Shown here piece by piece: positions 43,388-61,725 of a DNA stretch of 64,000 nucleotides. The position numbers and the translations under genes are program-made. The DNA comes from an uncultured Gammaproteobacteria bacterium (lineage in GTDB: Bacteria; Patescibacteriota; Microgenomatia; Levybacterales; UBA12049), in the NCBI GenBank assembly GCA_964507055.1, contig CAZDOJ010000001.1, forward strand, positions 1,105,313 through 1,169,312. The letters are read 5' to 3'. The stretch's first letter is position 1. Every line of letters begins with the position of its first letter. The notes beneath the pieces are model-generated. The model did not search any database. It was given only the letters and a program-made list of their open reading frames with translations, and was not told the origin of the DNA.

Positions 43388-43440
43388 ATTCATTATTAGT
43401 TGCCTCAAAAACCCGTATAAGGTAAAATACACGTTACTAT

Positions 43441-43514
43441 GCACCCGTAGCTTAGCTGGATAGAGCACAACATTGCGGATGTTGAGGTCGGAAGTTCGAA
43501 TCTTCTCGGGTGTA
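43441..43514 (+). tRNA. tRNA-Arg (anticodon GCG)
   Basis: 74 nt: GCACCCG-TA-GCTT-AGCTGGATA-GAGC-A-CAACA-TTGCGGA-TGTTG-AGGTC-GGAAG-TTCGAAT-CTTCT-CGGGTGT-A. Confidence 0.7.
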
Positions 43515-43574
43515 CTTAGGTCGAAAGGATCCCCTTTTCCATGGGATTCACCGTTATAATAACGGATATTCTTG

Positions 43575-43664
43575 GAGGGATCGCATAGTGGTCGAGTGCG
43601 GCGGTTTCGAAAACCGCTGTCCTGATTTTCTTCGGGACCGAGGGTTCGAATCCCTCTCCCTCCG
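43575..43664 (+). tRNA. tRNA-Ser (anticodon CGA)
   Basis: GGAGGGA..GCGGT-TTCGAAA-ACCGC..long variable arm..GAGGG-TTCGAAT-CCCTC-TCCCTCC-G. Confidence 0.8.
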
Positions 43665-43672
43665 CAAATAGC

Positions 43673-44707
43673 TTATTTCTTCTTACTCATCTTGCCAAAA
43701 AGTTGTAATTCCCAGATAAAGAGAAGCATGAGGGCGATTATTGCAATTACTGAGGCTTTCCAGATACCACGAGCAACTTTCTTCACCTTCATCTCTTCCA
43801 AGCGTTTTGACCATCTTGCTAATTTTGCTCGATAATCATTTTTTGTTTGCTCGTCCATGTCTGAAGTTTCTATATCAACAGCTCCTCTTTTTAATTGGGC
43901 TTGAGCATCATTTACAGTACTATCTGCCTCCTCAGTACTAATTTCTTCTTTATCTTTGGGATCCTCGTTCTCTTTTTCTAAAGGAAATCCACTTAATAAT
44001 TCTTCTTTTTGTTCAGCATTAAGATCAGACATTTCCTCGACTACAGCTTGGACTTCATCTCTGGATAAACCACTCAAAGCAGCTTTTGTTGCCTGCATTT
44101 CCTCAGCACTCAAGCGTTCTTTCCCGGCTATAATTTTTGCTGCTGCTGTCATTTTTCGAAGATTTTCCTTATCTTTCTCTGGAACTTCAACCGAGTTAAC
44201 TAATTTATCTACAGCCTGCTCTTCACTATTTTTCGATTCATCAACTTCTTCTTTAGATTGGGGTTGGTAATCAATTACCTCTTGAATCTTTCCATCACTG
44301 CTTTCATCTAAGCTATTTAACAACTCAGTAAAAGCTGTTCTTGCTTGATCATTTTGCTGAATTTGATGCGTTCTTTGTGTAACTTTTGCAATATCTTGTT
44401 TTTCTTCATCAGATAATTCTTCTAGATATGTAGCACTATACACCTCACCAATAGATGTTTTGAGTTTTTCTTTTGATTCATCGGTAAAATTCCCCTCTCC
44501 ATCCACGGGAGTACTTTTAACCTCCCACAGAAATTCTTTTACCTGCTCAGCAATATTTGCTTTGGCAAAAGCTTCTCTCTTTTCCTGATCTGGCACAGAA
44601 GCCTCATAGTGGGCTTGTTTTTCCTGTTCTCGTGCCTGTTCTTGGTTATCTCCTGACTCCATATCTTTCCTTTCTCCTATCCTCCAATATTTAGCCTGAA
44701 TTGTCAA
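43673..44707 (-). CDS. hypothetical acidic coiled-coil protein with C-terminal membrane anchor
   Basis: 344 aa, E/K/D/Q-rich, predicted helical; C-terminal TM 'VIAIIALMLLFIWELQLF'. Confidence 0.35.
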   Translation of the reverse strand: MTIQAKYWRIGERKDMESGDNQEQAREQEKQAHYEASVPDQEKREAFAKANIAEQVKEFLWEVKSTPVDGEGNFTDESKEKLKTSIGEVYSATYLEELSDEEKQDIAKVTQRTHQIQQNDQARTAFTELLNSLDESSDGKIQEVIDYQPQSKEEVDESKNSEEQAVDKLVNSVEVPEKDKENLRKMTAAAKIIAGKERLSAEEMQATKAALSGLSRDEVQAVVEEMSDLNAEQKEELLSGFPLEKENEDPKDKEEISTEEADSTVNDAQAQLKRGAVDIETSDMDEQTKNDYRAKLARWSKRLEEMKVKKVARGIWKASVIAIIALMLLFIWELQLFGKMSKKK

Positions 44708-44822
44708 GCTAGAATCCTATCAAACTTGGATACCTATAAAGAATAGGTTATAATTACAAAATCATTGTAATAGAACTCTGCCTTGTACACTTGATATTTT
44801 CCTTATAAAAAAATTACGAATT

Positions 44823-44906
44823 GGAGGAGTCGGATAGCGGTCTATTCCACACGCTTGGAAAGCGTGCGAGCGTAAGCTCACGCGGGTTCGAATCCCGCCT
44901 CCTCCG
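44823..44906 (+). tRNA. tRNA-Ser (anticodon GGA)
   Basis: GGAGGAG..CACGC-TTGGAAA-GCGTG..long variable arm..GCGGG-TTCGAAT-CCCGC-CTCCTCC-G. Confidence 0.75.
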
Positions 44907-44956
44907 CCCACGCCCTTACTATTGACAACCCAAAGTAAATCCATCACACTGAAATT

Positions 44957-46864
44957 ATGCGAAATTCTGCCCTCGCTCAATCTTTTGCTAAGTTCTTTCT
45001 TTCATTCTTGCTTTCTGCTGGCATAGGTTTAGCCTTCTTTTTTAGTTTTGCAAATTTTGCTTCAGCACAAACAGTCACTCCTATCCCAACAGCTCCTTCT
45101 GCTTATAATGATTTTCGAACCCCTGATGTTGATCCAGATGTTCCAAGGAATCATCATACGTATACACAAATCGTTATTATTGATGTCCTTTCTGCATTAA
45201 TGTGTCAAATGGTCGGGATAGATCCACTTACACCTTCAAAACAATGTTTAGGCTTTAATCCAGTTACCAATAAATTAGGATATGCACAAACTGAATTTGG
45301 ACAACCGACAACTCCGCAATTAGGTGGAGCTGTGGGGACAATGACAACATTAGTAGGGGGATTATATACACCTACCGTTAGTTCCTCACAATATATGAAC
45401 TACCTTTCTTCAAACTTTGGGATAGTTAAAAGTGCTAATGCAGCCGCTCCAACGACCATTGATTGTTCAAAAGATGTGCAGTTTGGCTATGGATTCTGTG
45501 GCTTACAACCGATCTTTAAACTTTGGGTAGCAATGAGAGATTTTTCTTACGCCTTGCTTGTCATAGCGTTCATTTTTCTTGGTTTGGGTGTTATGTTACG
45601 ATTTAAAGCTGATCCAAGAACGGTAATGAATCTACAAAATCAGATTCCAAGAGTCATTGTCGCAATTCTATTGATCACGTTCTCTTATGCTATTGCTGGT
45701 GGAATGGTCGATCTTATGTGGACAGTCACATATGCCGGAGTAAATGTCATTGCAAGTACCACAGACGCGAAAGTACGTGATGGCTGTGGTCAGCCAGGAG
45801 ATGGGGCATCACTCACTGAAACTGCCACCAATAATTTACTCGATAATCCTGTGAGTTTCGCAAATAGAATCTATTTACGAGACTGTGAGGGTGTCGATAG
45901 CGGAATAGTTAATATTTCGGGAAGGGTGACTGACTCATTTATAGCCTTGGTTCTTAGTATTATAAAAGAAATTACAGGTTGGGATCTCAATGCAGCCGAT
46001 TGTGGAATAACTACACTTTTTGCTGGCTGTCTCATACATTTTGGACTGTGGTTAACAGAGCTCATTATTACTCTTATTATTTTAGTAACCATCTTTATAG
46101 CATTATTTAGGTTATGGTTTGAATTAATTAAAGCGTATATTACATTCTTTATCTTTGTTATTTTGGGACCAATATGGATAGTTCTCGGATTGATTCCAGG
46201 AAGACCTCTTGGTTTTGAGAAATGGTTTAGGCTCATTTTTGCGAACTTAGCTGCATTCCCTCTTGTCGCATTTATCTTGGTATTTGCACGTGTTGTTGTT
46301 GAATCAGTACAGCCAGTGGTTGAAACACCAGTCGACCCAACAGCAACATTTGTTCCACCACTTGTTGGAAATCCAAATGCTACGGCATTTGGGGTACTTC
46401 TTGCACTCGGAGCTATTTTGATTGCACCAACAATTCCAGCTATGATACGTGAACGTATGAAGGTAGGACAAGGGAAATTCGGTGCTACTATCGCAGCAGG
46501 CTTAGGAGTAGCAACAGGTGTTGCTGCTGCACCTGCAACGAAAGCATGGAAGAATTTAAATAGAAGAAACTCTACGACTGGTGCACCTGAAGGAGCTTTG
46601 GCTGTATGGAGACATAGAGCTGTGGGCAGGGTTCCAGGCGTTCAGGCATCAAGAGATAGGAAGATAGCTTCTAAAAACGCATATAATGATCCAGGGACAG
46701 ATGCTTCAGGAAAGAGAAAATCCTATGGCCAAGCATACAAAGATAACTTGAATGCTATGGATCGAACAACATTAGGGCAGAAAGCAGGTACGCCGGTAAA
46801 GTGGGCAAGAAATAAACTGAGATCAAGAGGCGGTGGAGGCTCCAACACAGGAAGCGGCACCTGA
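44957..46864 (+). CDS. VirB6/TrbL-like polytopic membrane protein of type IV secretion-like cluster
   Basis: 635 aa; signal peptide, ~200-aa extracytoplasmic domain, then ~8 TM segments, Gly/Arg-rich C-terminal tail; first gene of T4SS-like cluster. Confidence 0.4.
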   Translation: MRNSALAQSFAKFFLSFLLSAGIGLAFFFSFANFASAQTVTPIPTAPSAYNDFRTPDVDPDVPRNHHTYTQIVIIDVLSALMCQMVGIDPLTPSKQCLGFNPVTNKLGYAQTEFGQPTTPQLGGAVGTMTTLVGGLYTPTVSSSQYMNYLSSNFGIVKSANAAAPTTIDCSKDVQFGYGFCGLQPIFKLWVAMRDFSYALLVIAFIFLGLGVMLRFKADPRTVMNLQNQIPRVIVAILLITFSYAIAGGMVDLMWTVTYAGVNVIASTTDAKVRDGCGQPGDGASLTETATNNLLDNPVSFANRIYLRDCEGVDSGIVNISGRVTDSFIALVLSIIKEITGWDLNAADCGITTLFAGCLIHFGLWLTELIITLIILVTIFIALFRLWFELIKAYITFFIFVILGPIWIVLGLIPGRPLGFEKWFRLIFANLAAFPLVAFILVFARVVVESVQPVVETPVDPTATFVPPLVGNPNATAFGVLLALGAILIAPTIPAMIRERMKVGQGKFGATIAAGLGVATGVAAAPATKAWKNLNRRNSTTGAPEGALAVWRHRAVGRVPGVQASRDRKIASKNAYNDPGTDASGKRKSYGQAYKDNLNAMDRTTLGQKAGTPVKWARNKLRSRGGGGSNTGSGT

Positions 46865-46884
46865 CGGTAGGAGAGTAAAAGAAA

Positions 46885-49836
46885 TTAGTAGCCTCTAAAT
46901 ACGGCATTAAGGAACATACTCACAGAATCACTCCAACCACCATCGGTTCGATGACGGAAATCTTGCCACATGCCTCGTAAGAACATACGAAATTCCGTAG
47001 TATTCGATAGCTGTTTTAGCCATCTCATATCATCTTTATTAAAGAAGTTTTTTGTAACGATTCCGCCTCTCATATTAAATTCGTCACCAAGGAATTCGGC
47101 TGGGATTGATTCCATCGCGTCAATAACAGATGAAAAGTAATGGTAGTTGTAATTAGGATCTTTGCTATGTTTATCTATATGTGTCCATAAATCTGAACCC
47201 AACTTCATCAATGCCCATTGCTTATATGCTTGTGTTGGCTTTTCTTGAAGCTTTGTATAATCAATTTCATATCGACCATTTTTATCAATAACCCATTTAT
47301 TTTTAATATCTTTTCCTTCTGCGTCTTTATGACACTTTCGATACTCAGGGATATCAAGAATTTGATGTCCGAAGAGTGCCTCTCCCAACGGCATTTCACG
47401 AAATTCATATTTGTCATTTCCATCGGGCCCTCGTCCAACAAAGACCTGATCTCGAACTAACATACTATAGTTAACTTCACCAAAAGTATCAAAGAGGTAT
47501 CGTAGCGGTTTAAGAAAATCCTCTTGTATCTCTTTCTGAAATTCTCCCCTATTAAATGAGACTCTTCGAGTAAGTGGATCATATTTTGAAAATTTATCAA
47601 AGCTAATTTCTTTTGCACCCATAATTTGGTCATACACTTTTTGAGCACGAGCAACGTGATTAGCCACGTAATTTGTCATTGCACGTTCATGGAATTCCAA
47701 TTGACCAGCGACACGGTTTGCTTTTTTATAGAGACTCTCTAATTCTTTACGTTTTGCATTGTATGCTTCAATATCATCTTTTGATGCACTTAATTCGGAT
47801 TCAAGCCTTTTTCGCTCTGAGATTTGAGAGAGTCGTGTTTCATTCATATCTTCAAAGACTTCACGTAACGATTTTTTTCTCGTTTGTTTGTTACCATCTC
47901 TATTAAGAACTTCGTTACCCTCTACATCTTTAGAATTTGTATACGCCTGTGATACACGGATACCATTCATGAAGTCAAGCATTACTCGCTTAAACATAGG
48001 GATTGTATAAAGATTACCAGCTCCATTACCACGTTTCCCTGTAACCATTTTTCGACGATATCCTTCTGTTCCGGTTAGTTTTTTTGTTGAATCATAAGCA
48101 GAAAAACCGACATCGTTTCTTGTGGCTGCACCGGAGAAACGAAGCCAAGACTTTGCGAGAAGTAACGCCATGTCCAAACTAGTATCGTCTTTAATGCGAT
48201 GATTACCGTGAGTATCGAGTGCATTTACGTTTTGTTCATCTGATTCAAAATTATATTGATCGTCGAGAGATATTTTTAAAGCCTCTCTAACAACTTTTTC
48301 TACTGTCCCGCTATAAGCCATCGCACCAAAGTAATTCACAAACTTACTAAAGCCTCCTTTTGCTTTACCAGTTTTCTTATCAATCTTTTCTTTCACAGAC
48401 CAGCCATCTTCACCAAAAGCATCTGCGAAACCGTTGGATTCATCTCCAAGAAAGACCATCATCTCATCACGGCTAACTCGGGTCTGACCATGCTTAGATT
48501 TCATAACATTTTTCATCGCTTCTTCCCAAGTGTCTTTATGGAAAAACTTAGAGTCTTTACCCATAACTTTTTGTAGTTCTTTATAATCTGCAAGATTATA
48601 ATAGGCAAGAAAAGCAGTAGTAAATGCTGCACCGACTTTATCGTCTGCTTGACCTTTTTCGTAATCGAGAGAAAAAGTTGACATGAAATAGGTCATACTT
48701 TTACCGTATGAGGATTTTGTAATCTTATTCTTATAGTATAATTCACCCAATTTCTTAGTAAGATCTCCACCGCTTGACATCACGGTCTGATAATTTAAGT
48801 CATAATTTCTTAAGTACATAACAGACAGTACTTCTTTAAGCAATTGATCATACAGATCAGTATTCATGTTTTTATCTTCGTCTATAAAATAACGTGATTT
48901 TTCGTCGATGATATCATCAAGCGTTACTGGACGAAAATCCTTTGGAATTTTAACTGCATGAAAGAAATCTACTTCACTATCAGGTTCCTTGTCATCAGCA
49001 TAGAAGACGATAATACTTCGCATCCATCGCATGAAGTTTGCTTTGTTCACATGATATCGTCCTTCAGGCTTACCTGTTTTTGTATTTGATTTTACCTCCA
49101 TTTGCATGATAGGGTATCGTCCATTAATACCAAATTCTGCGGCATCGTTATAACCAATTTGCCAGCCCAATTGCTCTAGCCCTTGTGGAGTCTTACCATC
49201 ATACTCACCCTTATTCTCATCATTAAATTCATCATAAAGTATGTATTTTCTTATATACTCGTCTCGAACAATACCTAGACCGTGATCAGCATTACTGAGT
49301 ATAAAATCTAATCTATATCGTTCAGGATCTCCACCATATTTCCTATGCTGATCGCTAACATAGTCCAACATTTTTTGTTGAGCTTCCTCATCTGGGTTTA
49401 GCAATGCTCGTGATTTTGCAAGTGCCTCCTCTCCAGTTAATCCTTGTCCGAGTAGTACTTCTAATGTGTTATCGATTTTGCCACGAATACTTTTTTCTTC
49501 AAAAGTAAGTTCGTCATTTTTTGTACCCCATCCGAGTGCTTGGCGGATATTTGCGGAAACCTCTTGCTTATGATTTTTTGATTCTTCCCAACCAAATTGT
49601 TCCCAATCTTTCATCTTACGAACAACCGTTCGTTGTTCCTCAGGTGAGGCTTGGGTTTCTACGCTGGCATCTAATTCAGCCTCATATTTACGAAGCCTCT
49701 CTTCGAGTTCAGTTAATTTTTTAGGAGGAGTTCGTTCTTCTGCCGCAGGATGTTCCTGAGTATCTACACCACCTTCATTCATATTTCTATTATATCGGCT
49801 TCCGGAGAAGCCAGTCAATTCACCATGATCTACCAT
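46885..49836 (-). CDS. large hypothetical soluble protein (983 aa) within T4SS-like cluster
   Basis: no TM, no recognisable catalytic motif; long charged helical regions; sits between VirB6-like gene and regulator. Confidence 0.35.
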   Translation of the reverse strand: MVDHGELTGFSGSRYNRNMNEGGVDTQEHPAAEERTPPKKLTELEERLRKYEAELDASVETQASPEEQRTVVRKMKDWEQFGWEESKNHKQEVSANIRQALGWGTKNDELTFEEKSIRGKIDNTLEVLLGQGLTGEEALAKSRALLNPDEEAQQKMLDYVSDQHRKYGGDPERYRLDFILSNADHGLGIVRDEYIRKYILYDEFNDENKGEYDGKTPQGLEQLGWQIGYNDAAEFGINGRYPIMQMEVKSNTKTGKPEGRYHVNKANFMRWMRSIIVFYADDKEPDSEVDFFHAVKIPKDFRPVTLDDIIDEKSRYFIDEDKNMNTDLYDQLLKEVLSVMYLRNYDLNYQTVMSSGGDLTKKLGELYYKNKITKSSYGKSMTYFMSTFSLDYEKGQADDKVGAAFTTAFLAYYNLADYKELQKVMGKDSKFFHKDTWEEAMKNVMKSKHGQTRVSRDEMMVFLGDESNGFADAFGEDGWSVKEKIDKKTGKAKGGFSKFVNYFGAMAYSGTVEKVVREALKISLDDQYNFESDEQNVNALDTHGNHRIKDDTSLDMALLLAKSWLRFSGAATRNDVGFSAYDSTKKLTGTEGYRRKMVTGKRGNGAGNLYTIPMFKRVMLDFMNGIRVSQAYTNSKDVEGNEVLNRDGNKQTRKKSLREVFEDMNETRLSQISERKRLESELSASKDDIEAYNAKRKELESLYKKANRVAGQLEFHERAMTNYVANHVARAQKVYDQIMGAKEISFDKFSKYDPLTRRVSFNRGEFQKEIQEDFLKPLRYLFDTFGEVNYSMLVRDQVFVGRGPDGNDKYEFREMPLGEALFGHQILDIPEYRKCHKDAEGKDIKNKWVIDKNGRYEIDYTKLQEKPTQAYKQWALMKLGSDLWTHIDKHSKDPNYNYHYFSSVIDAMESIPAEFLGDEFNMRGGIVTKNFFNKDDMRWLKQLSNTTEFRMFLRGMWQDFRHRTDGGWSDSVSMFLNAVFRGY

Positions 49837-49912
49837 AATAGGTGCATTATATGTATTTCGAGGCTAGTGTGCTTTATATTGCAATTATAAAATACTTATA
49901 AAGAGGTTACAA

Positions 49913-51241
49913 TTACTTATTGAATTTGAATCCTCGCCCTTTAATTGTATGGAGATGTATAGGATGATTTGCATCTTCTTCAATCTTACGTCGAACTCGG
50001 AAAATTAATTGATCGACAGCTTGATCAGTGATTCCGGCTGTAGATTTCATATTTGACCAGACAACGCTTATAAGCTCATCTCTATCAACAACCCTATCTT
50101 CATTCTGGAGTAAATATGTAAGTAATCGAAACTCAGAAGAAGTTAATTGATCCGATAAAACAGTTGCACCTTTCCGAATGGTGTTCGTATTTTGATCGTA
50201 TACTATTTTTTTCGCTTCAGATCCTGATCCTCCATATTCTTTGGCTATAAAAAGAGAGAGAAGTGGTATTTGCACTGTATTATCTTTGAGCAAACCAACA
50301 TTTTCGAGATAAACCCGAACTTCTGCTTCTTCAAAACTATGCTCTTGAATATCTGCTTGCTCTGCCGGAGAAAGTGATAGCCAAATCTCACTCAAAGCAC
50401 TCTGTATGGTTTTTTGTTCAAGAAGATATTTTGAAATGTCCTCGGGCACTTCACCAAATCCTATGATTGATTCGACAGATAGCTTCGTTAATTTGCCATG
50501 ACCACCAGTCAAAGCCATGATTTCTTTAAATACTTTTTCCTCGATTTTCTTTCCTGTTACCTTCTCAACGTATGAAAGTCTATGTTTTGCGAAAACTTCA
50601 TCGTATAAGGCAACATATACAATTTTTCCAGCGACAAATTCGTAATAGTCAGCAAGCAATGATGGTTCGAGTAGATTCTCTAAAGGACGATTTACGGAAA
50701 ATACAATTGAGAAATGGTATTTTGCCCTGTTTCGTAAAATTCTGAGGTTGCTGAAGAACTCAACTGGAACAGTTCGGATATACTCTTCGAAGCGACTGAA
50801 TAAAAAGACTGTAGTCATCCTCTTTTCAAGGGATAGATAATCAATAGCTTCTTTAAATCCCTGAAAAAGAACAAGTTCATCATTAAACTGTAAATGCTCA
50901 CGAAATTTATCTCCAACAACTTTATTTTCTTCAGTAAGGCCTCGCTCACGTAACGATTCTGTCAGGTTCAGAAATAAAAATTTCATCACATCAAACAATG
51001 GCCGTGTTTTAATCTCGGAGAAATCAACAATCACAAAATGCATGGATTCTTGTGATCCTTTCAGGTGTTTTTTTCTAATCTTACTATTGTTTGCAAGAAG
51101 TCCCAGGATTGTGGAACGACTAACTCCAGGAATTCCTACCAACTGACAAGAATTTCCTTCCTTTATATAATGAATTATCCTTTCAATTTCCATGTCTCGG
51201 GTTAAATCCGGAAATTGTGCTTCAAAATGTTCTTCCAACAT
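49913..51241 (-). CDS. ATPase-domain protein with C-terminal OmpR/PhoB-type winged-helix DNA-binding domain
   Basis: N-terminal degenerate P-loop 'QLVGIPGVSRSTILGL'; C-terminal 'LTSSEFRLLTYLLQNEDRVVDRDELISVVW...VDQLIFRVRRKIE...IHTIKGRGFKF' trans_reg_C-like. Confidence 0.55.
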   Translation of the reverse strand: MLEEHFEAQFPDLTRDMEIERIIHYIKEGNSCQLVGIPGVSRSTILGLLANNSKIRKKHLKGSQESMHFVIVDFSEIKTRPLFDVMKFLFLNLTESLRERGLTEENKVVGDKFREHLQFNDELVLFQGFKEAIDYLSLEKRMTTVFLFSRFEEYIRTVPVEFFSNLRILRNRAKYHFSIVFSVNRPLENLLEPSLLADYYEFVAGKIVYVALYDEVFAKHRLSYVEKVTGKKIEEKVFKEIMALTGGHGKLTKLSVESIIGFGEVPEDISKYLLEQKTIQSALSEIWLSLSPAEQADIQEHSFEEAEVRVYLENVGLLKDNTVQIPLLSLFIAKEYGGSGSEAKKIVYDQNTNTIRKGATVLSDQLTSSEFRLLTYLLQNEDRVVDRDELISVVWSNMKSTAGITDQAVDQLIFRVRRKIEEDANHPIHLHTIKGRGFKFNK

Positions 51242-51336
51242 ACATTCATTCTAGTTACTTTTAAAGCATACTTCAAGCTACTTCTAATGAATTTATGCCC
51301 TTGCAATTTCATATGATTCTTTAGTATCGTAGAGTT

Positions 51337-51660
51337 ATGGACTACTTAGCACTTACACTCCCCGGCGGAAGAAATATACAACCTCCAGGAGAGATACCAA
51401 ATGGTGGACTTGATACGCTTTCAAGTGCAATAAGTGCAGGAATATCATGGATGATTATTATTGCAGTAATACTATCATTATTTTTTCTCGTGACAGGTGG
51501 TGTCGCATGGTCGGCATCAGGTGGAGATAAAGGAAAAATCGCTGCTGCACGTGCAAGACTTACCTATGCAGTAATTGGATTAATCGTAGCAATTGCGTCA
51601 TTCTTCCTTATAAATGTATTTGGAACATTCTTTGGAGTTACACTTTTAGGGAACAATTGA
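51337..51660 (+). CDS. VirB2/TrbC-like pilin (paralog 1)
   Basis: 107 aa; two hydrophobic helices flanking conserved 'SGGDKGKIAAARARLTYAVIGLIVA'. Confidence 0.5.
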   Translation: MDYLALTLPGGRNIQPPGEIPNGGLDTLSSAISAGISWMIIIAVILSLFFLVTGGVAWSASGGDKGKIAAARARLTYAVIGLIVAIASFFLINVFGTFFGVTLLGNN

Positions 51661-51699
51661 GATAATCTGATCTATTGACAAAGATTAAATTATTGTTCT

Positions 51700-52128
51700 A
51701 TGATAAGTAAAGATAACATGAAAAAAGTTTTAACAGCTATAGTTTCAGGAGGAGCAGCATATCTAGCAACTGCAGGGATTGCACTTGCAGGAGGTACAAG
51801 TGTTGATCCATGTCCTGAAGCAGGACAATTTCAAAATCTTTGTAATCTAAATGGTGATAATCTTGGAGCGATTATCGGAGCTGCAGTAACCTTTATCTTA
51901 ATCGTGGCTGTTCTTATTGCCCTATTCTTCCTTATCTTCGGTGGTATCCGTTGGATTACATCAGGCGGAGATAAAGCAAAAGTAGAAAGTGCACGAGGCA
52001 CAATTATTGCAGCAATCATTGGTTTAGTTATAGCTTTCTTAGCATTCTTTATCCTTTCATTAGCTTTGAGCTTCTTCGGACTCAGTCTCACAGAACTCGA
52101 ACTCCCTACAATCGACGGACTTAACTAA
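51700..52128 (+). CDS. VirB2/TrbC-like pilin (paralog 2)
   Basis: 142 aa; signal-like N-term, Cys pair, 'TSGGDKAKVESARGTIIAAIIGLVIA'. Confidence 0.5.
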   Translation: MISKDNMKKVLTAIVSGGAAYLATAGIALAGGTSVDPCPEAGQFQNLCNLNGDNLGAIIGAAVTFILIVAVLIALFFLIFGGIRWITSGGDKAKVESARGTIIAAIIGLVIAFLAFFILSLALSFFGLSLTELELPTIDGLN

Positions 52129-52216
52129 GTTTATTTAGAGTTTCCATACTTATTCCCTTTTTTAATATAGTTATACCCTCTTGCTTTTTGTTAAATATAT
52201 TTGCTAGGCTAAATAT

Positions 52217-52618
52217 ATGTTAAAGAAATTACTTCTTGTATCACTCGCTGCACTGACGCTAATTTTTACTGCCGCTCCTATTTCACCTGTTCATGCACAA
52301 TTCAGAGACTGGGGTGATGGCTGTGTAGATCAAAATGGAATTGCGTCTCTTCGATGCATTCCGTTTGTATTTGGCAATATTGTATACGCTCTTCTTATGT
52401 TTGTTGGTACAGTTGCAGTAGTTCTCCTTGTATATGCAGGCATCCGCTTTATATCCTCGGGAGGAGATCCAAAGAAAGTTGCTGGGGCACGACAAATTAT
52501 TACGTACGCACTTATTGGACTGGTATTGGTACTCTCATCTTTTGCGATAATAGCACTCATAAGTTACACAACCGGAGTTGAGTGTATTCGAACATTCGGT
52601 TTTGACACCTGTAAATAA
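52217..52618 (+). CDS. VirB2/TrbC-like pilin (paralog 3)
   Basis: 133 aa; signal peptide 'AAPISPVHA', Cys pairs, 'SSGGDPKKVAGARQIITYALIGLVLV'. Confidence 0.5.
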   Translation: MLKKLLLVSLAALTLIFTAAPISPVHAQFRDWGDGCVDQNGIASLRCIPFVFGNIVYALLMFVGTVAVVLLVYAGIRFISSGGDPKKVAGARQIITYALIGLVLVLSSFAIIALISYTTGVECIRTFGFDTCK

Positions 52619-52846
52619 CCCCTAACTTTTCACAATTAAGGCTAAGTAGCTACTCCTTTTGACCTACTTTGTTGGGGTTGCAATCAAATTTTTCACGTTA
52701 TACACTTTTAGCAATAGAAGACACTACTTTATGTCTTTTAAATCGGGTATTAAGCATACTATCCGGAACAACAGCAAAGATTTTTGAAAATCAGCATCAT
52801 TTGCTCGTTTTTATTGTAGGTGTGCTTAGAATTTATCTAATTTGTT

Positions 52847-54238
52847 ATGGATCAACATCCTATACCACAAGATGTAACTGGATTTCAGTTTAAATTGATT
52901 GGCACAATGACCGTTAAGCAATTCGGTTATGTGGCTGTTGGTGCTGTAATGGCTGTTATTCTTTATTACCTTCCATTAAGTGGATTTTTTGGGGTAATGT
53001 TTAAAGTATTCATGATCCCATTACTAGGAGCAAGTGGTGTGGTTATCGCCTTTGTTCCAATAGATGGACGACCAATTGACACTATGACATCTAATTTTAT
53101 AAAAGCATTGTTCTCTCCAAATCAGTATATCTACAAACGCCAGGGACGTAAGATGAGTTTTTCAATCGTAACAGTTGTAAAACCAGCCGTTGCTGCCGCT
53201 CAAACAGCAAATAAGACTCCTGGACAAAATGCTACATCAGCAAAAGAAGCCGATGATAAAGAGGCAAAGCTACGAGCATTCTTAAATAGCTCTCAAGGAC
53301 GAGTTCAAAATGATCTCGATAAAAAAGAAGCGTCCTTCTTAAAATCATTTGGGCCACCAACAATCGCCGTGCCGAATAAAACTCCCATGGTAACCACCCC
53401 ATTGGCAAAACCAAGTTTAGCAGTCACTCAAAAAACAGTTATTGCGAAACCAACTGCAACTTTACTGGTAGCACAACCTCCAAAACCACTCGCTCAAATT
53501 GCAGTAAAACCAACCCCTTCAAACGGAGCGACAAAGGTATCACCTGTTTCTACACCAGTAGGATCTCCTGCTCCAATACCTCAACCTCAAACGCTGGAAC
53601 AAAAAGAACTGAGCCTTGCACAGGAACTTGCTCAAGCAAAGCAAGAAGAAGCCTCACAAGTCCAACCAGCAGCACATGATGTAGCACATGCAAAAGTTGA
53701 AACACTAGCGAAACAGATTGAAGACATTCATACACAAAAGCACAAGCTTGAAACAGAGCTTTCAGCTCTCAAACAACAACTCACCCAGGAGAAAACCACA
53801 TCTGCACCAATGCAGGCTCCAACCCCAGTACAACCAATCGCAGTAGCAAAGCCAGCTATTCCTATTCAGGACCCGCACCTAGTCAAAGTTGTTGCAGGAG
53901 CAACAAAAGCACCTGAAGTCCCAAGAGTATCCGATACTCCAAATGTTGTTGTGGGAATTGTAAAAGATCCTCGAGGAAATATCCTCTCAAATATACTTGT
54001 TGAGGTTAAAGATAGTGAAGGAAATCCTGTTCGTGCCTTTAAGACAAACCCTCTTGGGCAGTTTGCTTCAGCTACTCCACTAAGCCCTGGCGTATATACT
54101 CTTGAGCTCGAAGATCCTAAAAAACTCCACAGCTTTGACGTCATTCAAATAACTGCAAATAATGAGATTATGCGTCCAATTGAAGTAATTTCTCATGATG
54201 CAAGAGAAGCATTACGACAACAATTATTTGCATCATAA
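52847..54238 (+). CDS. VirB3-like membrane protein with long P/A/Q-rich linker and C-terminal beta-sandwich (CarbPepD_reg-like) domain
   Basis: N-terminal ~100 aa with two TM helices directly upstream of VirB4-like genes; linker; C-terminal 'VVGIVKDPRGNILSNILVEVKDSEGNPV...GVYTLELED'. Confidence 0.4.
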   Translation: MDQHPIPQDVTGFQFKLIGTMTVKQFGYVAVGAVMAVILYYLPLSGFFGVMFKVFMIPLLGASGVVIAFVPIDGRPIDTMTSNFIKALFSPNQYIYKRQGRKMSFSIVTVVKPAVAAAQTANKTPGQNATSAKEADDKEAKLRAFLNSSQGRVQNDLDKKEASFLKSFGPPTIAVPNKTPMVTTPLAKPSLAVTQKTVIAKPTATLLVAQPPKPLAQIAVKPTPSNGATKVSPVSTPVGSPAPIPQPQTLEQKELSLAQELAQAKQEEASQVQPAAHDVAHAKVETLAKQIEDIHTQKHKLETELSALKQQLTQEKTTSAPMQAPTPVQPIAVAKPAIPIQDPHLVKVVAGATKAPEVPRVSDTPNVVVGIVKDPRGNILSNILVEVKDSEGNPVRAFKTNPLGQFASATPLSPGVYTLELEDPKKLHSFDVIQITANNEIMRPIEVISHDAREALRQQLFAS

Positions 54239-54248
54239 AACCTAACCT

Positions 54249-54917
54249 ATGGCTGCCCAAAAAATACACGCTACAACACAGAAATTTACAGAGATCGTCG
54301 ACTTCGGCGAGGATATTGTAATTCTTGAAGGTGGGAATGCTTGCATGATCATAGAGATCACAGCAAGTAATTTTGCTTTGCTCTCAAAACGAGAACAGGA
54401 TTCGAGAATTTTTTCATATGCTGGACTATTAAACTCCCTTTCCTTCCCCATTCAAATCTTAATTCGAAACAGACGAATGGACATATCACAATATATCGTG
54501 GAATTAAACGAGATTATAAAGAATACCAAGAATCCTCAACTTCGAGCATACGTAGAATACTACAGTGGCTTTGTGCAAGAAATGGTTACGGTAAATGTCG
54601 TACTTAATAAACAATTTTATATTGTGGTTCCTTTTTCTTCTCTTGAACTTGGTGTAGCAGGAGCAACGCAAACAACACAAAAAGGACAAGCACAAGTCGA
54701 CGCATTTACGACTTCAGCAAGAAAAGCACTTCAGACAAAGGCAAATTCGCTCTTGGGTCAATTACAAAAATTTGCAACTTCAGCAAAAGTATTAGAGAAA
54801 GAAGATCTTATAAAACTATTTTACGAAATTTATAATGAAACAACTGAAGTGGATATGGATCAGATGGAAGAAGGGGCTGAAGCCTCAATTGTTAAAGGAG
54901 GACAAGCACAACAATGA
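54249..54917 (+). CDS. hypothetical protein, possible separately encoded N-terminal domain of VirB4
   Basis: 222 aa; stop overlaps ATG of VirB4-like ORF (ATGA); downstream ORF lacks typical VirB4 N-terminal domain. Confidence 0.35.
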   Translation: MAAQKIHATTQKFTEIVDFGEDIVILEGGNACMIIEITASNFALLSKREQDSRIFSYAGLLNSLSFPIQILIRNRRMDISQYIVELNEIIKNTKNPQLRAYVEYYSGFVQEMVTVNVVLNKQFYIVVPFSSLELGVAGATQTTQKGQAQVDAFTTSARKALQTKANSLLGQLQKFATSAKVLEKEDLIKLFYEIYNETTEVDMDQMEEGAEASIVKGGQAQQ

Positions 54918-56959
54918 ACTTACCTTTTGGAAAAAAAGCTAATCCGGCTGCACCAGCTCCAGCAGCTACACCTGTACAAAAAGCTGCCGTGGCAACACCC
55001 GGAGCTAAACCTGCAGTTGCACCAGCAAAAGGAAAAGCTCCAGCAGCTCCCATTTCTAAAGGAATAGACACATTTGAAAAAGGCCTGACCTCCGTTGTGG
55101 ATCTTATCGCACCTTCTTCTGTTGAGGTTGATTTCCGATATATTAGAGTTGGAGATAATTTCTATACTACCCTTTTCATCGCAGGATATCCTCGTTATGT
55201 CTCTCCTGGATGGCTTGAGGGAATTATCGATTACGACCATACTATGGATATTGCAATGTTTTGTTACCCAACATCATCATCAGATGTTTTGGCAGACTTG
55301 AAGAGAAAAATTGGAGAGATGCAGGCTACGCTCGCATCGGATGCCGAACAGGGAAAAGTTGCAGACCCAACAGTCGAAGCAGCACTTGAAGATGCGTTGG
55401 GACTTCAAGAAGAGCTGGCAAAGGGCGTTGAGAGATTTTTCCAATTTGGGTTCTACATCACTGTTTCCGATGGTGATATTACAAAGCTGCAAGAAACAAT
55501 AAAAAACCTCCAAACGGCACTTGGATCACTGCTTTTAACTGGAAAAATTGCAACGCTACAGATGGAGGAAGGTTTTAAATCTTCTTTACCAATGGGACAA
55601 GATCGTCTCTACATTACAAGAAATATGGATACGTCTTCTCTTGCCTCGACATTCCCATTTACCTCAGCAGTTCTGACACAAAATAGAGGTGTTATGTATG
55701 GTGTGAACCAACAAAATGGTTCACTTATTATCTTTGATCGATTCTCTCTAGAAAATGCAAATGAAGTCGTTTTGGGTAAATCCGGTGCAGGAAAATCGTA
55801 CACGATCAAACTTGAGATCATGCGGCAATTTATGCTTGGAGCTGAAGTTATCGTTATTGACCCCGATGGAGAATATGAAACAATGACTCCAGCACTTGGC
55901 GGCGAAGTTGTTGAATTCTCTTCAGGTTCAGCAATCAAGATTAATCCTTTTGATCTTTCCGACGTGTATGAAGAAGGCGAAAATGAACTAGGTTTGAAAA
56001 TCATGTCATTGCATGGATTACTTAAGATTATTACAGGAGAACTGGATGCAGAACATGATGCGATCCTAGATAGAGCACTAATTGAAACATATCGTTCCAA
56101 AGGAATTACTACAGATCCAGCAACACAAAAAAAACAGCCTCCCCTTCTAGAAGATTTATACAAAATTCTTCTCGGTATGGAAAATGATACTGCGAAATCA
56201 CTCGCATATTCGCTTGAAAAATTCATCAAAGGAAGTGCTTCAGGTATCTTCAACCAACAATCAAATTTCGAAATTAATAATCCACTTACGATTTTCTCTA
56301 TTCGTAATTTAGAAGAAGCCCTCAGACCTGTGGCGATGCATATTATTCTAGATTTCGTTTGGACGAAAGTAAAAAAGTCACTTAAAAAGCGTACATTAAT
56401 TCTTGATGAAGGATGGTACATGATGAAGTATCAAGACTCTGCTTCCTTTGTTTATTCGATCGCCAAACGTGCCCGTAAATACTATCTTGGATTAACAACA
56501 GCGACACAGGATGTGGAAGACTTTTTAAAGAACGAGTATGGGAAAGCTGTACTTACCAACTCATCAATCCAAGTCCTTCTCAAACAGGGTACAGCAGAAG
56601 TGGATATGATTACGGATACTTTCTACCTTTCTGAAGGAGAGAAGGCACTACTGCTCTCTGCTGACGTAGGAGAAGGACTCTTCTTTGCAGGACAGAACCA
56701 CGTAGCAATGAAGGTTTTTGCGGCACCATTTGAACATGAACTTATTACATCTAATCCTATGGAATTATTAAAGAGACAGCAGGAAAAAGAGCGTGCGAAT
56801 CTTGCTGCAGGAGTTAAACCTGATAATGCAGACACTGGTACCCCTCCAGTAGAAAATCCAGCCGTAGCACCAGTGACAAATACACCATCTGTCGAAAATC
56901 CTGATATTCCACAGACTCCTCCACCTGGTACACCTCCAGGAGGAACGCCAACAACATAG
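54914..56959 (+). CDS. VirB4/TrbE/CagE-like type IV secretion ATPase
   Basis: 681 aa; Walker A 'VLGKSGAGKSYTIK', Walker B 'TLILDEGWYMM', 'GLTTATQDV'; C-terminal P/T-rich tail. Confidence 0.75.
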   Translation: MNLPFGKKANPAAPAPAATPVQKAAVATPGAKPAVAPAKGKAPAAPISKGIDTFEKGLTSVVDLIAPSSVEVDFRYIRVGDNFYTTLFIAGYPRYVSPGWLEGIIDYDHTMDIAMFCYPTSSSDVLADLKRKIGEMQATLASDAEQGKVADPTVEAALEDALGLQEELAKGVERFFQFGFYITVSDGDITKLQETIKNLQTALGSLLLTGKIATLQMEEGFKSSLPMGQDRLYITRNMDTSSLASTFPFTSAVLTQNRGVMYGVNQQNGSLIIFDRFSLENANEVVLGKSGAGKSYTIKLEIMRQFMLGAEVIVIDPDGEYETMTPALGGEVVEFSSGSAIKINPFDLSDVYEEGENELGLKIMSLHGLLKIITGELDAEHDAILDRALIETYRSKGITTDPATQKKQPPLLEDLYKILLGMENDTAKSLAYSLEKFIKGSASGIFNQQSNFEINNPLTIFSIRNLEEALRPVAMHIILDFVWTKVKKSLKKRTLILDEGWYMMKYQDSASFVYSIAKRARKYYLGLTTATQDVEDFLKNEYGKAVLTNSSIQVLLKQGTAEVDMITDTFYLSEGEKALLLSADVGEGLFFAGQNHVAMKVFAAPFEHELITSNPMELLKRQQEKERANLAAGVKPDNADTGTPPVENPAVAPVTNTPSVENPDIPQTPPPGTPPGGTPTT

Positions 56960-57004
56960 ATACATTCTCTTACCACGACCTCGTGTTTTTGATACTATTA
57001 AACT

Positions 57005-59770
57005 ATGGCAACTGATACTAAAACTCGGGATAATACGAAGCAAGGGCTGATTGATCCACAAAAGCGAGAAAAGCAAGAACAAGATCATGAATATGATCAC
57101 CATAAAATAGCTGAAGCTGCTGGTAGTAGGATTCGACGGTTTAGCTTAACGCTTAAAGCCGGTCCAAATATTCACAACGAAGCAGTTAAGCTAGCAAAAG
57201 AAGTTGAACATAGTGTTGAGGCATTTGAAAAAATAGGAAAATCAGAAGATGCGATATTAGAAGAAGTTGAGAGAATAGTACTGAGGGCAGAACAGAGTCT
57301 TCAATCAGAAGCAAAGGCCGAAAAGAAAGCAGAGGAAAAGGAAAAGGAAAAAAAGGAAGAGGAAGAAAAAAAGCACCATGGAGAGCATGAAGAGCATGAT
57401 ACAAAGAGGCATGAACAAGAAAAACCTGCAAGTGCAAATAAATCGATAGAAGAAAAAAGTCAGGAAAAAGTTGAAGAACTCAAGGCAGAAATTGCAGCAG
57501 GGGTAGCGGGGACGGCTGTGGGAGCAACTGTCGCAGCATCTCTTCCTGAATTTACTCCAGAACGAGATCAGACACTAAAGACAGAACAAGATACACTTTT
57601 GGCTGGAGCTGAAAAAGCGAGAATAGCCGCATTACCCCCTGAAGAAAAAGCAAAATTACGACTAGAAGAAATCCGTAATGGAACGTATAAAAAACCCTCT
57701 ATAAACTCTGATATAAATTTCACACCAGATAAACCAGTAAGCGGTAAAATAATAGATCAACAGACAGTAACAAATTTCCCTCAAGGGGTACACGAGACTG
57801 CAGTAAAAGAGAGACTTGCAAAGTTACGAGAAGAAGCACGTACTCCACAAAAAAACGTGCGAAAAATGGGGAGAGCCGCTCCAGCAGAGCGAAAGAAAAT
57901 ACACATACAAACACCTGACAATGTACGAAAGAATATACCTCCACGCGGAATACAAATGAGAATTAATGCTCGAACCTCTCCCCCTTTAATCAGACCTTCA
58001 GGCTCAAGAAGACGAATGATGGGCGGAATGACAACAACGACAACAAGCGAGAGCTCTTTTCAAAGAGGTGAAGGAACTACCTATGAAGATGTCACGGAAT
58101 TCCGACTACGAAGACCTATGCCATCCCAAGTAACGTCTGAAACAGAAGAACGAGGCGGGACATACTCAAGCGGAGGAGGAAGTGGTAGTGGTGGCCAATC
58201 ATCAGGAGGTGGAAATAGTGGAGGAGGCAGTGGAGGATCTTCAGGTGGAGGACATGGACCACAGAGAGGTGGACTCGGAAATCCTGCACGAAATATTTTG
58301 CGCGGAGGACTTGGAGGAGGAAAAGGTATGGGAGGGCTGGCAAAAGGTGGCACTCAAGCATTTGCAAAACAAGGAGCAAAAGTCGCAGCACAAGCATTAT
58401 TGCGTAATCCATATGTTTTAGCCGCAATAGCCGTAATTCTCATTGTTATTATCATTATCTTGTTTATAATTTTCCTCGTGACAGGCCAGGAAGCAACAGA
58501 TAACGCTTGTACCGCTCCGCCTGAAACAATGACTGCAACGATAAATGGACCCGCAACCGCAAATGCTGGACAAGAATTAACATATGAAGTAAAGATAGCA
58601 GATACTGTTGCTGCCCAAGATGTTACTATTGTTGCAACAATTCCTCAAGGTCAAACATTTGTACGATCAGATTGGGCAAAAAGTGTCGTTACGGGAAGTA
58701 CTGTAACATGGAAAGCAACAGAAAATTTGCCTCCAAACAGTCTAAGTCCACCCAATTTTACATTTAATATCACTCTCAGTCCGGGAGCAGCAAATACAAA
58801 TTCTGTCCTTATGGTTGATGCTACACCAATAAGAACGACTGCAGTAGCACCGGGTGCAGGTGGAAACCAACAAGCGGGAAGACAAAAAAGCACAGAGGAA
58901 TTAAAAACTATTTATGGTGCAGATCAAGCAGCAGTTGAAGCAAATTTGGTAACAATAGACTTTCAAGGAAAACAAGTACAAGTAAATAAACTTGTGCAAG
59001 GTGTATTTGAAAAAGTTAATACTGAAATCACTGCGGCGAACACGGGTTATGCATTCAGACAAGTTGGTACATATTCATGGCGAACAAAAAATATTCCCGG
59101 ACAAAATTCTTCAGAACTATCTACACATAGTTTTGGAATTACCATAGATATTAACCCTGATACGAATCCATATACAACAGCAAACACTCATGATATCCCA
59201 CCTGAAATTGTGACGATATTTAAGAATAATGGATTCATCTGGGGTGGAGATTGGAGTCCACAACATGACTGGATGCACTTTGAATATGCCGGTGCTCCGA
59301 ATGCTGTTCCAGGATCAGGAGGCTCGGGAGGATGTACTCCTGGGGCTGGTGGTCCGATATCTGCAAATTATGTTCCACCAAGTGCTGATACCTGTGGTGG
59401 AAAGTACAAGTTGAATAGTTCGCTCAAGATGAACTTCGGAGATCCACAATGTAATTTCAATAAAGATGCGTTATATTCACAGCTAAAGGCAGAAGATCCA
59501 GCTAACGCAGATGTATGGTTCAACAAGATTATAAAATGTGAGAGTTCCTATAATCCAAATGCATATGCTGGTAATGCTGTTGATGCAGCCGGTGCATGGG
59601 GACTGTACCAAATGGGTAGTGCAACCCCTCCAGGATCCCCCCCTCCTGCTGAAGGAAAGAATGGGATAAACGACAGAGGAGATGTCCCTTGGGTTATACA
59701 AACAACGAATGCAACAACGTACGGGAAAAGAATTTCGAGTCTCGGTGCATATTGGGCATGTGCAAGGTAA
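57005..59770 (+). CDS. T4SS-associated multidomain cell-wall hydrolase (Lys/Glu-rich N-term, Gly-rich segment, TM, Ig-like repeat, M15 peptidase-like and lysozyme/SLT-like domains)
   Basis: 921 aa; TM 'LAAIAVILIVIIIILFIIFLV'; 'STHSFGITIDIN' and 'DWMHFEY' (M15 SxHxxGxAxD / HFE-like); 'CESSYNPNA...GAWGLYQM' lytic-transglycosylase-like. Confidence 0.5.
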   Translation: MATDTKTRDNTKQGLIDPQKREKQEQDHEYDHHKIAEAAGSRIRRFSLTLKAGPNIHNEAVKLAKEVEHSVEAFEKIGKSEDAILEEVERIVLRAEQSLQSEAKAEKKAEEKEKEKKEEEEKKHHGEHEEHDTKRHEQEKPASANKSIEEKSQEKVEELKAEIAAGVAGTAVGATVAASLPEFTPERDQTLKTEQDTLLAGAEKARIAALPPEEKAKLRLEEIRNGTYKKPSINSDINFTPDKPVSGKIIDQQTVTNFPQGVHETAVKERLAKLREEARTPQKNVRKMGRAAPAERKKIHIQTPDNVRKNIPPRGIQMRINARTSPPLIRPSGSRRRMMGGMTTTTTSESSFQRGEGTTYEDVTEFRLRRPMPSQVTSETEERGGTYSSGGGSGSGGQSSGGGNSGGGSGGSSGGGHGPQRGGLGNPARNILRGGLGGGKGMGGLAKGGTQAFAKQGAKVAAQALLRNPYVLAAIAVILIVIIIILFIIFLVTGQEATDNACTAPPETMTATINGPATANAGQELTYEVKIADTVAAQDVTIVATIPQGQTFVRSDWAKSVVTGSTVTWKATENLPPNSLSPPNFTFNITLSPGAANTNSVLMVDATPIRTTAVAPGAGGNQQAGRQKSTEELKTIYGADQAAVEANLVTIDFQGKQVQVNKLVQGVFEKVNTEITAANTGYAFRQVGTYSWRTKNIPGQNSSELSTHSFGITIDINPDTNPYTTANTHDIPPEIVTIFKNNGFIWGGDWSPQHDWMHFEYAGAPNAVPGSGGSGGCTPGAGGPISANYVPPSADTCGGKYKLNSSLKMNFGDPQCNFNKDALYSQLKAEDPANADVWFNKIIKCESSYNPNAYAGNAVDAAGAWGLYQMGSATPPGSPPPAEGKNGINDRGDVPWVIQTTNATTYGKRISSLGAYWACAR

Positions 59771-59800
59771 ATGTAGTACTATTAACGATATAATAAAAGC

Positions 59801-60370
59801 ATGAAAAGAAAAAAAGAAGACTATTTCGTAATCGGACTTGGTGTCACTCTTGTACTTATCATTTTTATGATTGCTTTTATTGTGTCAAAGGATACGAAGA
59901 CAGACAATGGAGAAACTGTAGGAATTCCAATTCCAACACCCACAGCAATCCCTAATTCTGACCCCCGACCAACGAATGAAGCATATAGTAACCCGCCTGT
60001 TCTTTACGATAGTGCTGCACAAGATAAGATTGTTGCATATGTAAAAGATAGACAGCCTCTCTCTGACACAGATAGACTTGCGAAAGCAAAGATGTTGGCA
60101 TTGCTTCCTGAAGCTCAAATGTCAGGCGTTATCCATGAAACTCAAAATATCCGCATTGACTACACGAAGTCTGCAGACGTTTTCCAAGTAGAAATTCTTA
60201 CGACAGACGTTCCAGCAGCAAAGAATGAAGCAAATATTTGGCTACGGACACGTGGCCTAAGCCAAGAAGCGATTTGCAAACTCCCTATCGGATTTTATTT
60301 GAACTATGATATTGCTAACGAACTAAGAGGAACAGGATATGTATTTAATCCTCAAGGAAATGGTTGTTAA
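59801..60370 (+). CDS. hypothetical membrane-anchored extracytoplasmic protein
   Basis: 189 aa; N-terminal TM; P/T-rich linker. Confidence 0.3.
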   Translation: MKRKKEDYFVIGLGVTLVLIIFMIAFIVSKDTKTDNGETVGIPIPTPTAIPNSDPRPTNEAYSNPPVLYDSAAQDKIVAYVKDRQPLSDTDRLAKAKMLALLPEAQMSGVIHETQNIRIDYTKSADVFQVEILTTDVPAAKNEANIWLRTRGLSQEAICKLPIGFYLNYDIANELRGTGYVFNPQGNGC

Positions 60371-60386
60371 TATTGGATAGGCTCAC

Positions 60387-61088: not shown

Positions 61089-61093
61089 ATTAT

Positions 61094-61723: not shown

Positions 61724-61725
61724 CA

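Follow-up and report, generated by a model that had tools for sequence, protein, structure and literature searches.

A probably ancestral type IV secretion gene cluster flanked by tRNA-Ser genes and dnaN on a Patescibacteria chromosome

A gene cluster that starts immediately behind a tRNA gene may be an integrated mobile element or a resident part of the chromosome, and the 64-kb stretch of DNA analysed here (the window; part of contig CAZDOJ010000001.1) raises this question for a type IV secretion system (T4SS). The window comes from the chromosome of a member of the Patescibacteria (candidate phyla radiation, CPR), ultrasmall bacteria with poor biosynthetic capacity whose T4SS is regarded as central to life on their host cells. 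The initial annotation described Gram-positive/CPR-type T4SS machinery directly downstream of tRNA-Ser(GGA) and left two possibilities, an element integrated at the tRNA or a chromosomal apparatus for interaction with a host. We here conclude that the locus is very probably an ancestral chromosomal T4SS of the Patescibacteria clade, derived from the MPF-FATA type of mating-pair formation (MPF) system and situated between a tRNA-Ser array and dnaN-dnaA. The general picture has already been given by two recent papers and this locus adds little to it; new here is a large 983-residue protein that matches no sequence family or solved structure, and a probable, diverged VirB6 is of note besides. Together with a dedicated regulator, the 983-residue orphan offers concrete targets for experiments.

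The T4SS genes form a compact block of 14 open reading frames (ORFs) at 44957-62397 (Table 1). All ORFs listed in the initial annotation are present at the coordinates given there, but the end that it placed at 59770 was too early, given that the conserved block takes in 59801-60370 at a minimum and probably reaches 62397, up to dnaN. Beyond dnaN, across a gap of approximately 220 bp, the C-terminal DNA-binding domain IV of DnaA was read in translation on the minus strand at approximately 63740-64000 (GGRDHTTIIHGVEKI), where it runs off the window end. Because dnaN and the 3' end of dnaA adjoin the cluster, the T4SS lies beside the probable replication origin. The window also carries housekeeping genes for ribonucleotide reductase, GAPDH, a class A penicillin-binding protein, glutamate dehydrogenase, an aminoacyl-tRNA synthetase, RsmB, SmpB and tmRNA. 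The genomes that match best are labelled Levyibacteriota/Microgenomates, and the same proteins are present in Logan assemblies of runs SRR142713xx.

We evaluated synteny in 80 species-representative genome loci of relatives centred on virB4 (numbered L001 and so on), and the position of dnaN was scored in the 52 of them that extend 8 kb or more downstream. The named sources of these loci and of the 120 best VirB4 homologues are mostly Patescibacteria (Levyibacteriota, Microgenomates, Saccharimonadales), and the remainder carry other labels of metagenome-assembled genomes, e.g. 'uncultured Gammaproteobacteria'. The complete order of VirB6-like protein, 983-residue protein, regulator, three pilins, PrgI, TrsD, VirB4, hydrolase, 189-residue protein and dnaN is kept in 13–14 genomes, and the PrgI-TrsD-VirB4...dnaN core is retained to approximately 50% VirB4 identity. 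In 46 of these 52, virB4 is followed by dnaN on the minus strand, at a median distance of 3.9 kb. At the opposite end, a tRNA-Ser gene precedes the VirB6-like gene in all four relatives checked (43–61% VirB6 identity): tRNA-Ser(GGA) in L087 and L089, tRNA-Ser(CGA) in L088 and, in L090, tRNA-Ser(GGA) on the opposite strand, which puts the cluster at the 5' side of that tRNA.

The composition of the cluster is likewise that of its surroundings. The GC content at third codon positions (GC3) is 0.267 in the cluster versus 0.271 in the flanks, and the codon usage of cluster and flanks correlates at 0.975, compared with 0.959 for random halves of the flank genes. Searching the whole window with a 25-mer and a 17-mer of the tRNA 3' end, with up to three mismatches, returned the tRNA itself only, and a repeat search returned only the other tRNA-Ser. 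The ORFs from 42.8 to 63.5 kb and the further window ORFs that were scanned gave no match to an integrase or recombinase, and none of the scanned ORFs matched a transposase. Between genomes, VirB4 shows greater conservation than DnaN (85 versus 76% in L003, 81 versus 60% in L013), which suggests that the secretion ATPase is under housekeeping-level constraint; in Levyibacteria, the T4SS ATPase would thus be under stronger constraint than the replication clamp. Without repeat or integrase, and with flank-like composition, shared synteny and this constraint on VirB4, we read the tRNA adjacency from the sequence data as a piece of ancestral backbone and not as an attachment site or integration scar. 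Hence, the suspected integration at tRNA-Ser is rejected on the strength of the missing 3'-end repeat, the flank-like codon usage and the conserved synteny, and the three checks that had been proposed along with it (a direct repeat of the tRNA 3' end, GC and codon usage against the flanks, and synteny in relatives) remove it as a false lead.

Table 1 Landmarks, T4SS genes and associated features of the window
Feature	Coordinates	Strand	Evidence or remark
VirD4-type coupling-protein homologue, 794 aa	9747-12131	-	PF10412, PF02534, PF12696
tRNA-Ser(GGA), left landmark, apparently not an attachment site	44822-44910	+	ARAGORN, Rfam
Divergent VirB6/TrbL-like polytopic protein, 635 aa, predicted translocon channel subunit	44957-46864	+	
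983-aa soluble protein, orphan family linked to the T4SS locus	46885-49836	-	Evolves fastest within the locus
442-aa regulator, N-terminal degenerate P-loop domain and C-terminal OmpR/PhoB-type winged helix	49913-51241	-	
Divergent intergenic region, 95 bp	51242-51336	.	Two conserved back-to-back sigma-70-type promoter-like elements
VirB2-type pilin paralogue 1, 107 aa	51337-51660	+	PF18895, 28.7 bits
VirB2-type pilin paralogue 2, 142 aa, N-terminal signal-peptide-like segment	51700-52128	+	PF18895, 39.9 bits
VirB2-type pilin paralogue 3, 133 aa, N-terminal signal-peptide-like segment	52217-52618	+	PF18895, 31.5 bits
PrgI/VirB3-like membrane protein, 463 aa, long C-terminal extension	52847-54238	+	
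TrsD-like detached VirB4 N-terminal domain, 222 aa	54249-54917	+	
VirB4 ATPase body, 681 aa, MPF-FATA/CD1110 type	54914-56959	+	
Bitopic cell-wall hydrolase, 921 aa	57005-59770	+	Directly after virB4
189-aa membrane-anchored extracytoplasmic protein, transmembrane segment 5-33	59801-60370	+	Hydrolase companion
233-aa membrane-anchored protein, transmembrane segment 24-55	60387-61088	+	Paralogue of 61726-62397
209-aa secreted protein, N-terminal hydrophobic segment	61094-61723	+	
223-aa membrane-anchored protein	61726-62397	+	Paralogue of 60387-61088
dnaN (beta clamp), right landmark	62405-63514	-	Three DNA_pol3_beta domains

The T4SS profile matches to be expected of the VirB4, pilin and VirB3 ORFs were all found above the Pfam and NCBIfam cut-offs. 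VirB4 scores 383.5 bits against NF045971 (VirB4-like, CD1110 family; cut-off 325), also matches PF19044 and PF01935, and has the Walker A motif GKSGAGKS at residue 288 and a Walker B motif, LILDE, read in translation, in agreement with the initial call of a VirB4 with both motifs. Its homologues share 75–93% identity over thousands of clusters. The alignment covers positions 181–734 of the 752 in the profile, and between the PrgI-like gene and virB4 lies a 222-residue ORF that was absent from the initial list. This ORF matches positions 126–233 of NF045975 (VirB4_plasma, the mycoplasma-type VirB4) with an E value of 2e-8 and NF041427 (TrsD) with an E value of 1e-3, under the cut-off, and carries a precomputed PF26593 TraC-like annotation. 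Its stop codon overlaps the start codon of virB4 (ATGA), TrsD and VirB4 form a single ORF in L059 and L069 (832 and 779 residues, respectively), and TrsD is present in 75 of the 80 loci. The TrsD match, the late start in the profile, the ATGA overlap and the fused ORFs indicate that VirB4 is here split into two polypeptides that are predicted to be translationally coupled.

The three ORFs initially called VirB2/TrbC-like pilin paralogues all exceed the gathering score of PF18895 T4SS_pilin (26.6 bits) and have in common an SGGD..K...AR loop motif and two hydrophobic helices each. Their pairwise identity is 38–42%, with 38% between paralogues 1 and 2 and approximately 41% over the core between paralogue 3 and the others. 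The VirB3-like call is confirmed by a PF12666 (PrgI) match at the N terminus of the protein (residues 5–96, 37 bits, cut-off 27), and the gene lies upstream of TrsD-VirB4 in 71 of the 80 loci. Its C-terminal extension consists of a Pro/Ala-rich linker, a coiled coil and a CarboxypepD_reg-like beta-sandwich; residues 368–424 match PF13620 with 26.5 bits, under its cut-off.

The polytopic protein at the start of the cluster has approximately 7–8 hydrophobic segments, and its annotation as VirB6-like is supported as probable by its homologues, 17 of 35 of which match PF04610 TrbL/VirB6 (best E value 4e-7), and by its AlphaFold2 model (predicted local distance difference test, pLDDT, 70), for which the top seven Foldseek matches in the PDB are all TrwI/VirB6 of R388 with a probability of 0.99. 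A metagenome scan with this protein gave no match. The 'missing' VirB6 of Microgenomatia is thus probably present in diverged form. At the other end of the apparatus genes, the hydrolase combines a charged, low-complexity cytoplasmic N-terminal half, one transmembrane segment (462–499), an M15 peptidase and a lysozyme/SLT-like C-terminal domain. Peptidase_M15_4 (PF13539) matches residues 701–761 with 64.3 bits, the M15 domain resembles the Ply500 L-Ala-D-Glu peptidase (2vo9), the protein also gives PHROG endolysin matches, and a CES...GLYQM motif was read in translation in the C-terminal region. From the initial description of a membrane-anchored M15/SLT-like enzyme, the anchor and the peptidase therefore stand. 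The hydrolase gene is found downstream of virB4 in 31 loci, and we infer a functional analogue of VirB1. Homologues of the 189-residue protein occur in 28 loci, in every case after the hydrolase gene; the family has the invariant residues G152, C159, P162 and C189, including a conserved Cys pair, and a VirB8-like role is possible.

As no relaxase was found among the ORFs scanned across the window, the apparatus is presumably not a conjugation machine. The initial annotation had seen neither a relaxase nor a coupling protein inside the cluster and had pointed to an ATPase resembling a type IV coupling protein (T4CP) elsewhere in the window; both observations hold, and the ATPase has matching domains (Table 1), a Walker A motif GKTGTGKT and a Walker B motif FLYVDE. 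In L063, the gene for a homologue with 61% identity immediately precedes PrgI-TrsD-VirB4. This arrangement speaks for a functional link between coupling protein and T4SS, and the protein is a probable but unproven partner of the cluster.

In its make-up the locus corresponds to the published Patescibacteria T4SS. According to a recent survey (Quinonero-Coronel et al. 2025, PMC12102498), VirB4 occurs in 2,417 of 3,035 Patescibacteria genomes and forms a monophyletic clade nested in MPF-FATA, with rare transfer between classes; TrsD is the commonest VirB4-associated component, a PrgI-type VirB3 is present, VirB2 arrays are abundant in Microgenomatia, relaxases are hardly ever found, T4CP genes mostly lie at a distance and the loci lie near dnaN/dnaA. 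Likewise, the MPF-FATA-type VirB4 here is preceded by TrsD and PrgI/VirB3 and accompanied by a divergent VirB2-like pilin array, a peptidoglycan hydrolase comes right after virB4, and the chromosomal cluster lies beside dnaN/dnaA with no relaxase and with the T4CP elsewhere. A transposon sequencing study found that S. epibionticum cannot grow as an epibiont without its T4SS (SEML1_0006-0019) and pilins (Wang et al. 2023, PMC10633639). This match to the two papers bears out both the Gram-positive/CPR-type assignment and the host-interaction alternative of the initial annotation. The survey describes VirB6 as scarce in Microgenomatia and only 22.6% of VirB3 homologues as near virB4, whereas the cluster here has both a VirB6-like protein and VirB3; and in contrast to the Patescibacteria systems described there, a single bitopic protein combines the peptidase with the lysozyme-like domain. 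The sections of the two papers that were consulted contain no mention that we found of a regulator with P-loop and winged helix or of the 983-residue orphan.

The resemblance to the MPF-FATA systems of monoderm bacteria (pCF10 Prg/Pcf, pIP501 Tra, pGO1 Trs, CTn2) includes the best VirB4 match to the CD1110-family model, the PrgI-type VirB3, a TrsD as in pGO1, a probable channel protein of the VirB6/PrgH type, a wall hydrolase that is large and multi-domain, and the lack of outer-membrane core proteins. Unlike those systems, the locus encodes VirB2-type pilins, which are absent from Gram-positive systems, and an M15 rather than a CHAP hydrolase; it is without relaxase, PrgB-type adhesin, in-cluster T4CP or recognisable VirB8/PrgL; and it appears chromosome-fixed and vertically inherited, whereas they are borne on plasmids or integrative conjugative elements. 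With the VirB-type (MPF-T) systems of R388 and Agrobacterium it shares VirB2-type pilins and the VirB3-VirB4 partnership, and the R388 VirB6 fold (8rt9, 7o3v) is the best structural match of the 635-residue protein. In contrast to MPF-T, no VirB5, VirB7, VirB9, VirB10 or VirB11 is present here, the envelope is monoderm and VirB4 is divided between two polypeptides.

The regulator contains a PF00486 Trans_reg_C domain (64.9 bits, residues 365–440), and its PDB matches are the DNA-binding domains of RegX3, PhoB and OmpR. The winged helix of the initially proposed ATPase–winged-helix regulator is thereby confirmed but the ATPase part is not, its Walker A motif being degenerate (GIPGVSRST). The canonical GxPGxGK is kept in the more distant orthologues L078 and L069, and we read the family as P-loop-derived with a motif that has decayed in this lineage. 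Between the regulator and the first pilin gene, an alignment of 12 orthologous intergenic regions has the promoter hexamers as its sole invariant blocks. The minus-strand promoter-like element, TTGAAG-17-TAGAAT, is built on an invariant ATT-TA and CAA and was also caught by a generic scan, and the opposite one, TTGCAA-18-TATCGT, on an invariant CTTG plus T-GTA. Both stop approximately 7 nt short of the start codon, a spacing that suggests leaderless or near-leaderless transcripts. Over the cluster as a whole, the generic scan for promoters and terminators gave site numbers close to those expected by chance (56 versus 50.7, and 14 versus 12.7), and only the phylogenetically conserved boxes of the regulator-pilin region were retained as promoter-like elements. 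As a separate observation, the corresponding region of L002 (6124-6363) is 240 bp long instead of the usual 80–95 bp or so and contains two GC-rich hairpin-forming stretches, e.g. CCCCGTGAAGACGGGG and TCCCGCCTTCGCGGGA; a small repeat element may have inserted there.

From these parts we propose the following working. TrsD and the VirB4 body, made in coupled translation, would dock at the membrane via the PrgI/VirB3-like protein, and this VirB4 complex together with the VirB6-like polytopic protein would make up the cytoplasmic-membrane translocon, with VirB6 as the channel. VirB4 would power the extraction and polymerisation of the three pilins, exported by Sec, into a pilus or tube, and the anchored M15/lysozyme-like enzyme would cut peptidoglycan such that the structure can cross the wall. 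The regulator gene and the pilin-virB4 operon are transcribed in opposite directions, and the regulator probably governs the two units alike; the VirD4-type coupling protein, whose gene lies 33 kb away, may supply substrates. If the essential Saccharibacteria system is a guide, the apparatus would most likely mediate contact-dependent transfer of macromolecules between epibiont and host.

Several points weigh against this proposal. To our knowledge, no cultured Levyibacteria exists, and the epibiotic lifestyle is therefore itself an assumption; the proposed assembly and pilus formation, and likewise the nature of the substrate and the direction in which it moves, are deduced from homologous systems. 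The VirB6 assignment builds on weak matches, given that the protein itself matches no Pfam family and that its Foldseek hits have an E value of 7e-3 and TM-scores of 0.33–0.44; with such scores we call it a probable, diverged VirB6. The SLT part of the hydrolase call is marginal only (E value 0.038, under the Pfam threshold), no ORF matches a VirB8-like component in Pfam or NCBIfam, and a profile of the 189-residue protein, the VirB8 candidate, found no match among PDB sequences. Replacement of the Walker A lysine makes ATP-dependent control by the regulator doubtful. Finally, the only T4CP gene of the window is distant from the cluster and separated from it by housekeeping genes, and the T4CP homologue of S. 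epibionticum is not essential (PMC12102498).

The most enigmatic component is the 983-residue protein, whose gene follows that of the regulator on the same strand after 76 bp and is in locked synteny with the regulator and the VirB6-like gene. The initial annotation had left it without identity, and so it stays: neither the single sequence nor a 44-member alignment matches Pfam, NCBIfam, PHROGs or PDB sequences, and the predicted structure, with a large conserved core (pLDDT 85), has no PDB match. A word-indexed homologue search returned the query only, whereas tblastn and exhaustive HMMER found more than 200 relatives, so the single match is a sensitivity artefact, probably due to low-complexity words, and does not by itself mark the protein as an orphan. 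We think it possible, short of probable, that the protein founds a family restricted to Microgenomatia and could be a cytoplasmic component or a secreted substrate that has so far escaped notice in the Patescibacteria T4SS; it would then be the first handle on what this essential system transports.

Secretion of this soluble protein as an effector delivered to the host cell would make the locus an effector-export system, which we regard as unlikely though worth serious consideration. The protein has no transmembrane segment or signal peptide, is only 33% identical where VirB4 is 85% identical, and belongs to a family of narrow lineage with approximately 229 representative clusters among 1.84 billion in the exhaustive HMMER representative search; at 22–32% identity its members still adjoin the same type of regulator in three of three cases and have T4SS pilins nearby in two of three (L091, L092). 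However, secretion-signal evidence and a recognised enzymatic motif are both lacking in the protein, the gene follows the regulator rather than the apparatus genes, and the large folded core would equally suit a cytoplasmic component or sensor.

Nucleic-acid import, as by ComB of H. pylori or Ced of crenarchaea, with host DNA or RNA as nucleotide source, is an unlikely function for the apparatus. The lack of a relaxase fits import as well, and VirB4 has weak similarity to CedB (NF041017, 44 bits) and CedD (NF053655, 26 bits), but the CedB match is far under the family cut-off of 700 bits, and the cut-off for CedD is 600. A ComFC-like gene with a double zinc ribbon and a phosphoribosyltransferase domain (41674-42387, minus strand) lies 2.6 kb upstream of the cluster, and a gene with the latter domain is also found upstream in L087, L089 and L090. 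This adjacency may be a competence–T4SS linkage as in class ABY1, for which the survey reports comF, recG and radA next to the T4SS (PMC12102498), or simply synteny of the conserved chromosomal backbone. A 2026 preprint connects a parasitic member of the Patescibacteria with the consumption of host RNA and describes tubular structures, possibly T4SS pili, at the parasite–host interface (10.64898/2026.06.21.733656). On the other hand, deletion of comEC in S. epibionticum abolishes competence and leaves viability unaffected, whereas the T4SS is essential (PMC12857230, summarising PMC10633639), so the essential role is not classical DNA uptake in that bacterium.

An integrative conjugative or mobilisable element inserted at the 3' end of tRNA-Ser(GGA) and still carrying its mating-pair-formation genes is highly improbable: although the cluster begins 47 bp past the tRNA gene, its genes are homologous to monoderm conjugation genes and a BrnT/BrnA toxin-antitoxin pair between tRNA-Ser(GGA) and the VirB6-like gene of L087 (5248-5858) implies that this junction tolerates insertions, the window ORFs scanned hold no integrase, relaxase or transposase, the window has no tRNA 3'-end repeat, composition is indistinguishable from the flanks, position and order recur across many species-level genomes, the tRNA of L090 is reversed and VirB4 evolves more slowly than DnaN. 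The preferred reading therefore remains that of a resident T4SS.

Between the 189-residue protein and dnaN lie three further genes of the block. The two membrane-anchored paralogues share 33% identity over 165 residues and have homologues in 13–15 loci (15 for the 233-residue protein). For the secreted 209-residue protein between them, tblastn gave a match in the closest relative (L001) only, and it is doubtful that it belongs to the locus. A LAS metallopeptidase identity, considered by eye from HPKGRAMD...HQHVD, has no Pfam or PDB match behind it and the protein was left unassigned.

The tRNA-Ser(GGA) gene is the last of a 2.5-kb tRNA cluster (42419-44910) with five tRNA-Ser isoacceptors (GCT, ACT, TGA, CGA, GGA) and tRNA-Arg(GCG) on both strands. 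The same array is found in L089 and, with an extra tRNA-Arg(CCG), in L087. Between tRNA-Ser(CGA) and tRNA-Ser(GGA), a strongly acidic protein of 344 residues with a C-terminal transmembrane anchor is encoded on the minus strand (43673-44707); it matches no family, and in L087-L089 this position is taken by ORFs of similar size. A34 tRNAs are unusual in bacteria, with the exception of tRNA-Arg(ACG). The tRNA-Ser(ACT) gene (42528-42615, minus strand) nevertheless has A at position 34, its anticodon loop being read directly as TTACTAA, and adjoins tRNA-Ser(GCT), which already reads AGY; the pair is kept in L087 and L089.

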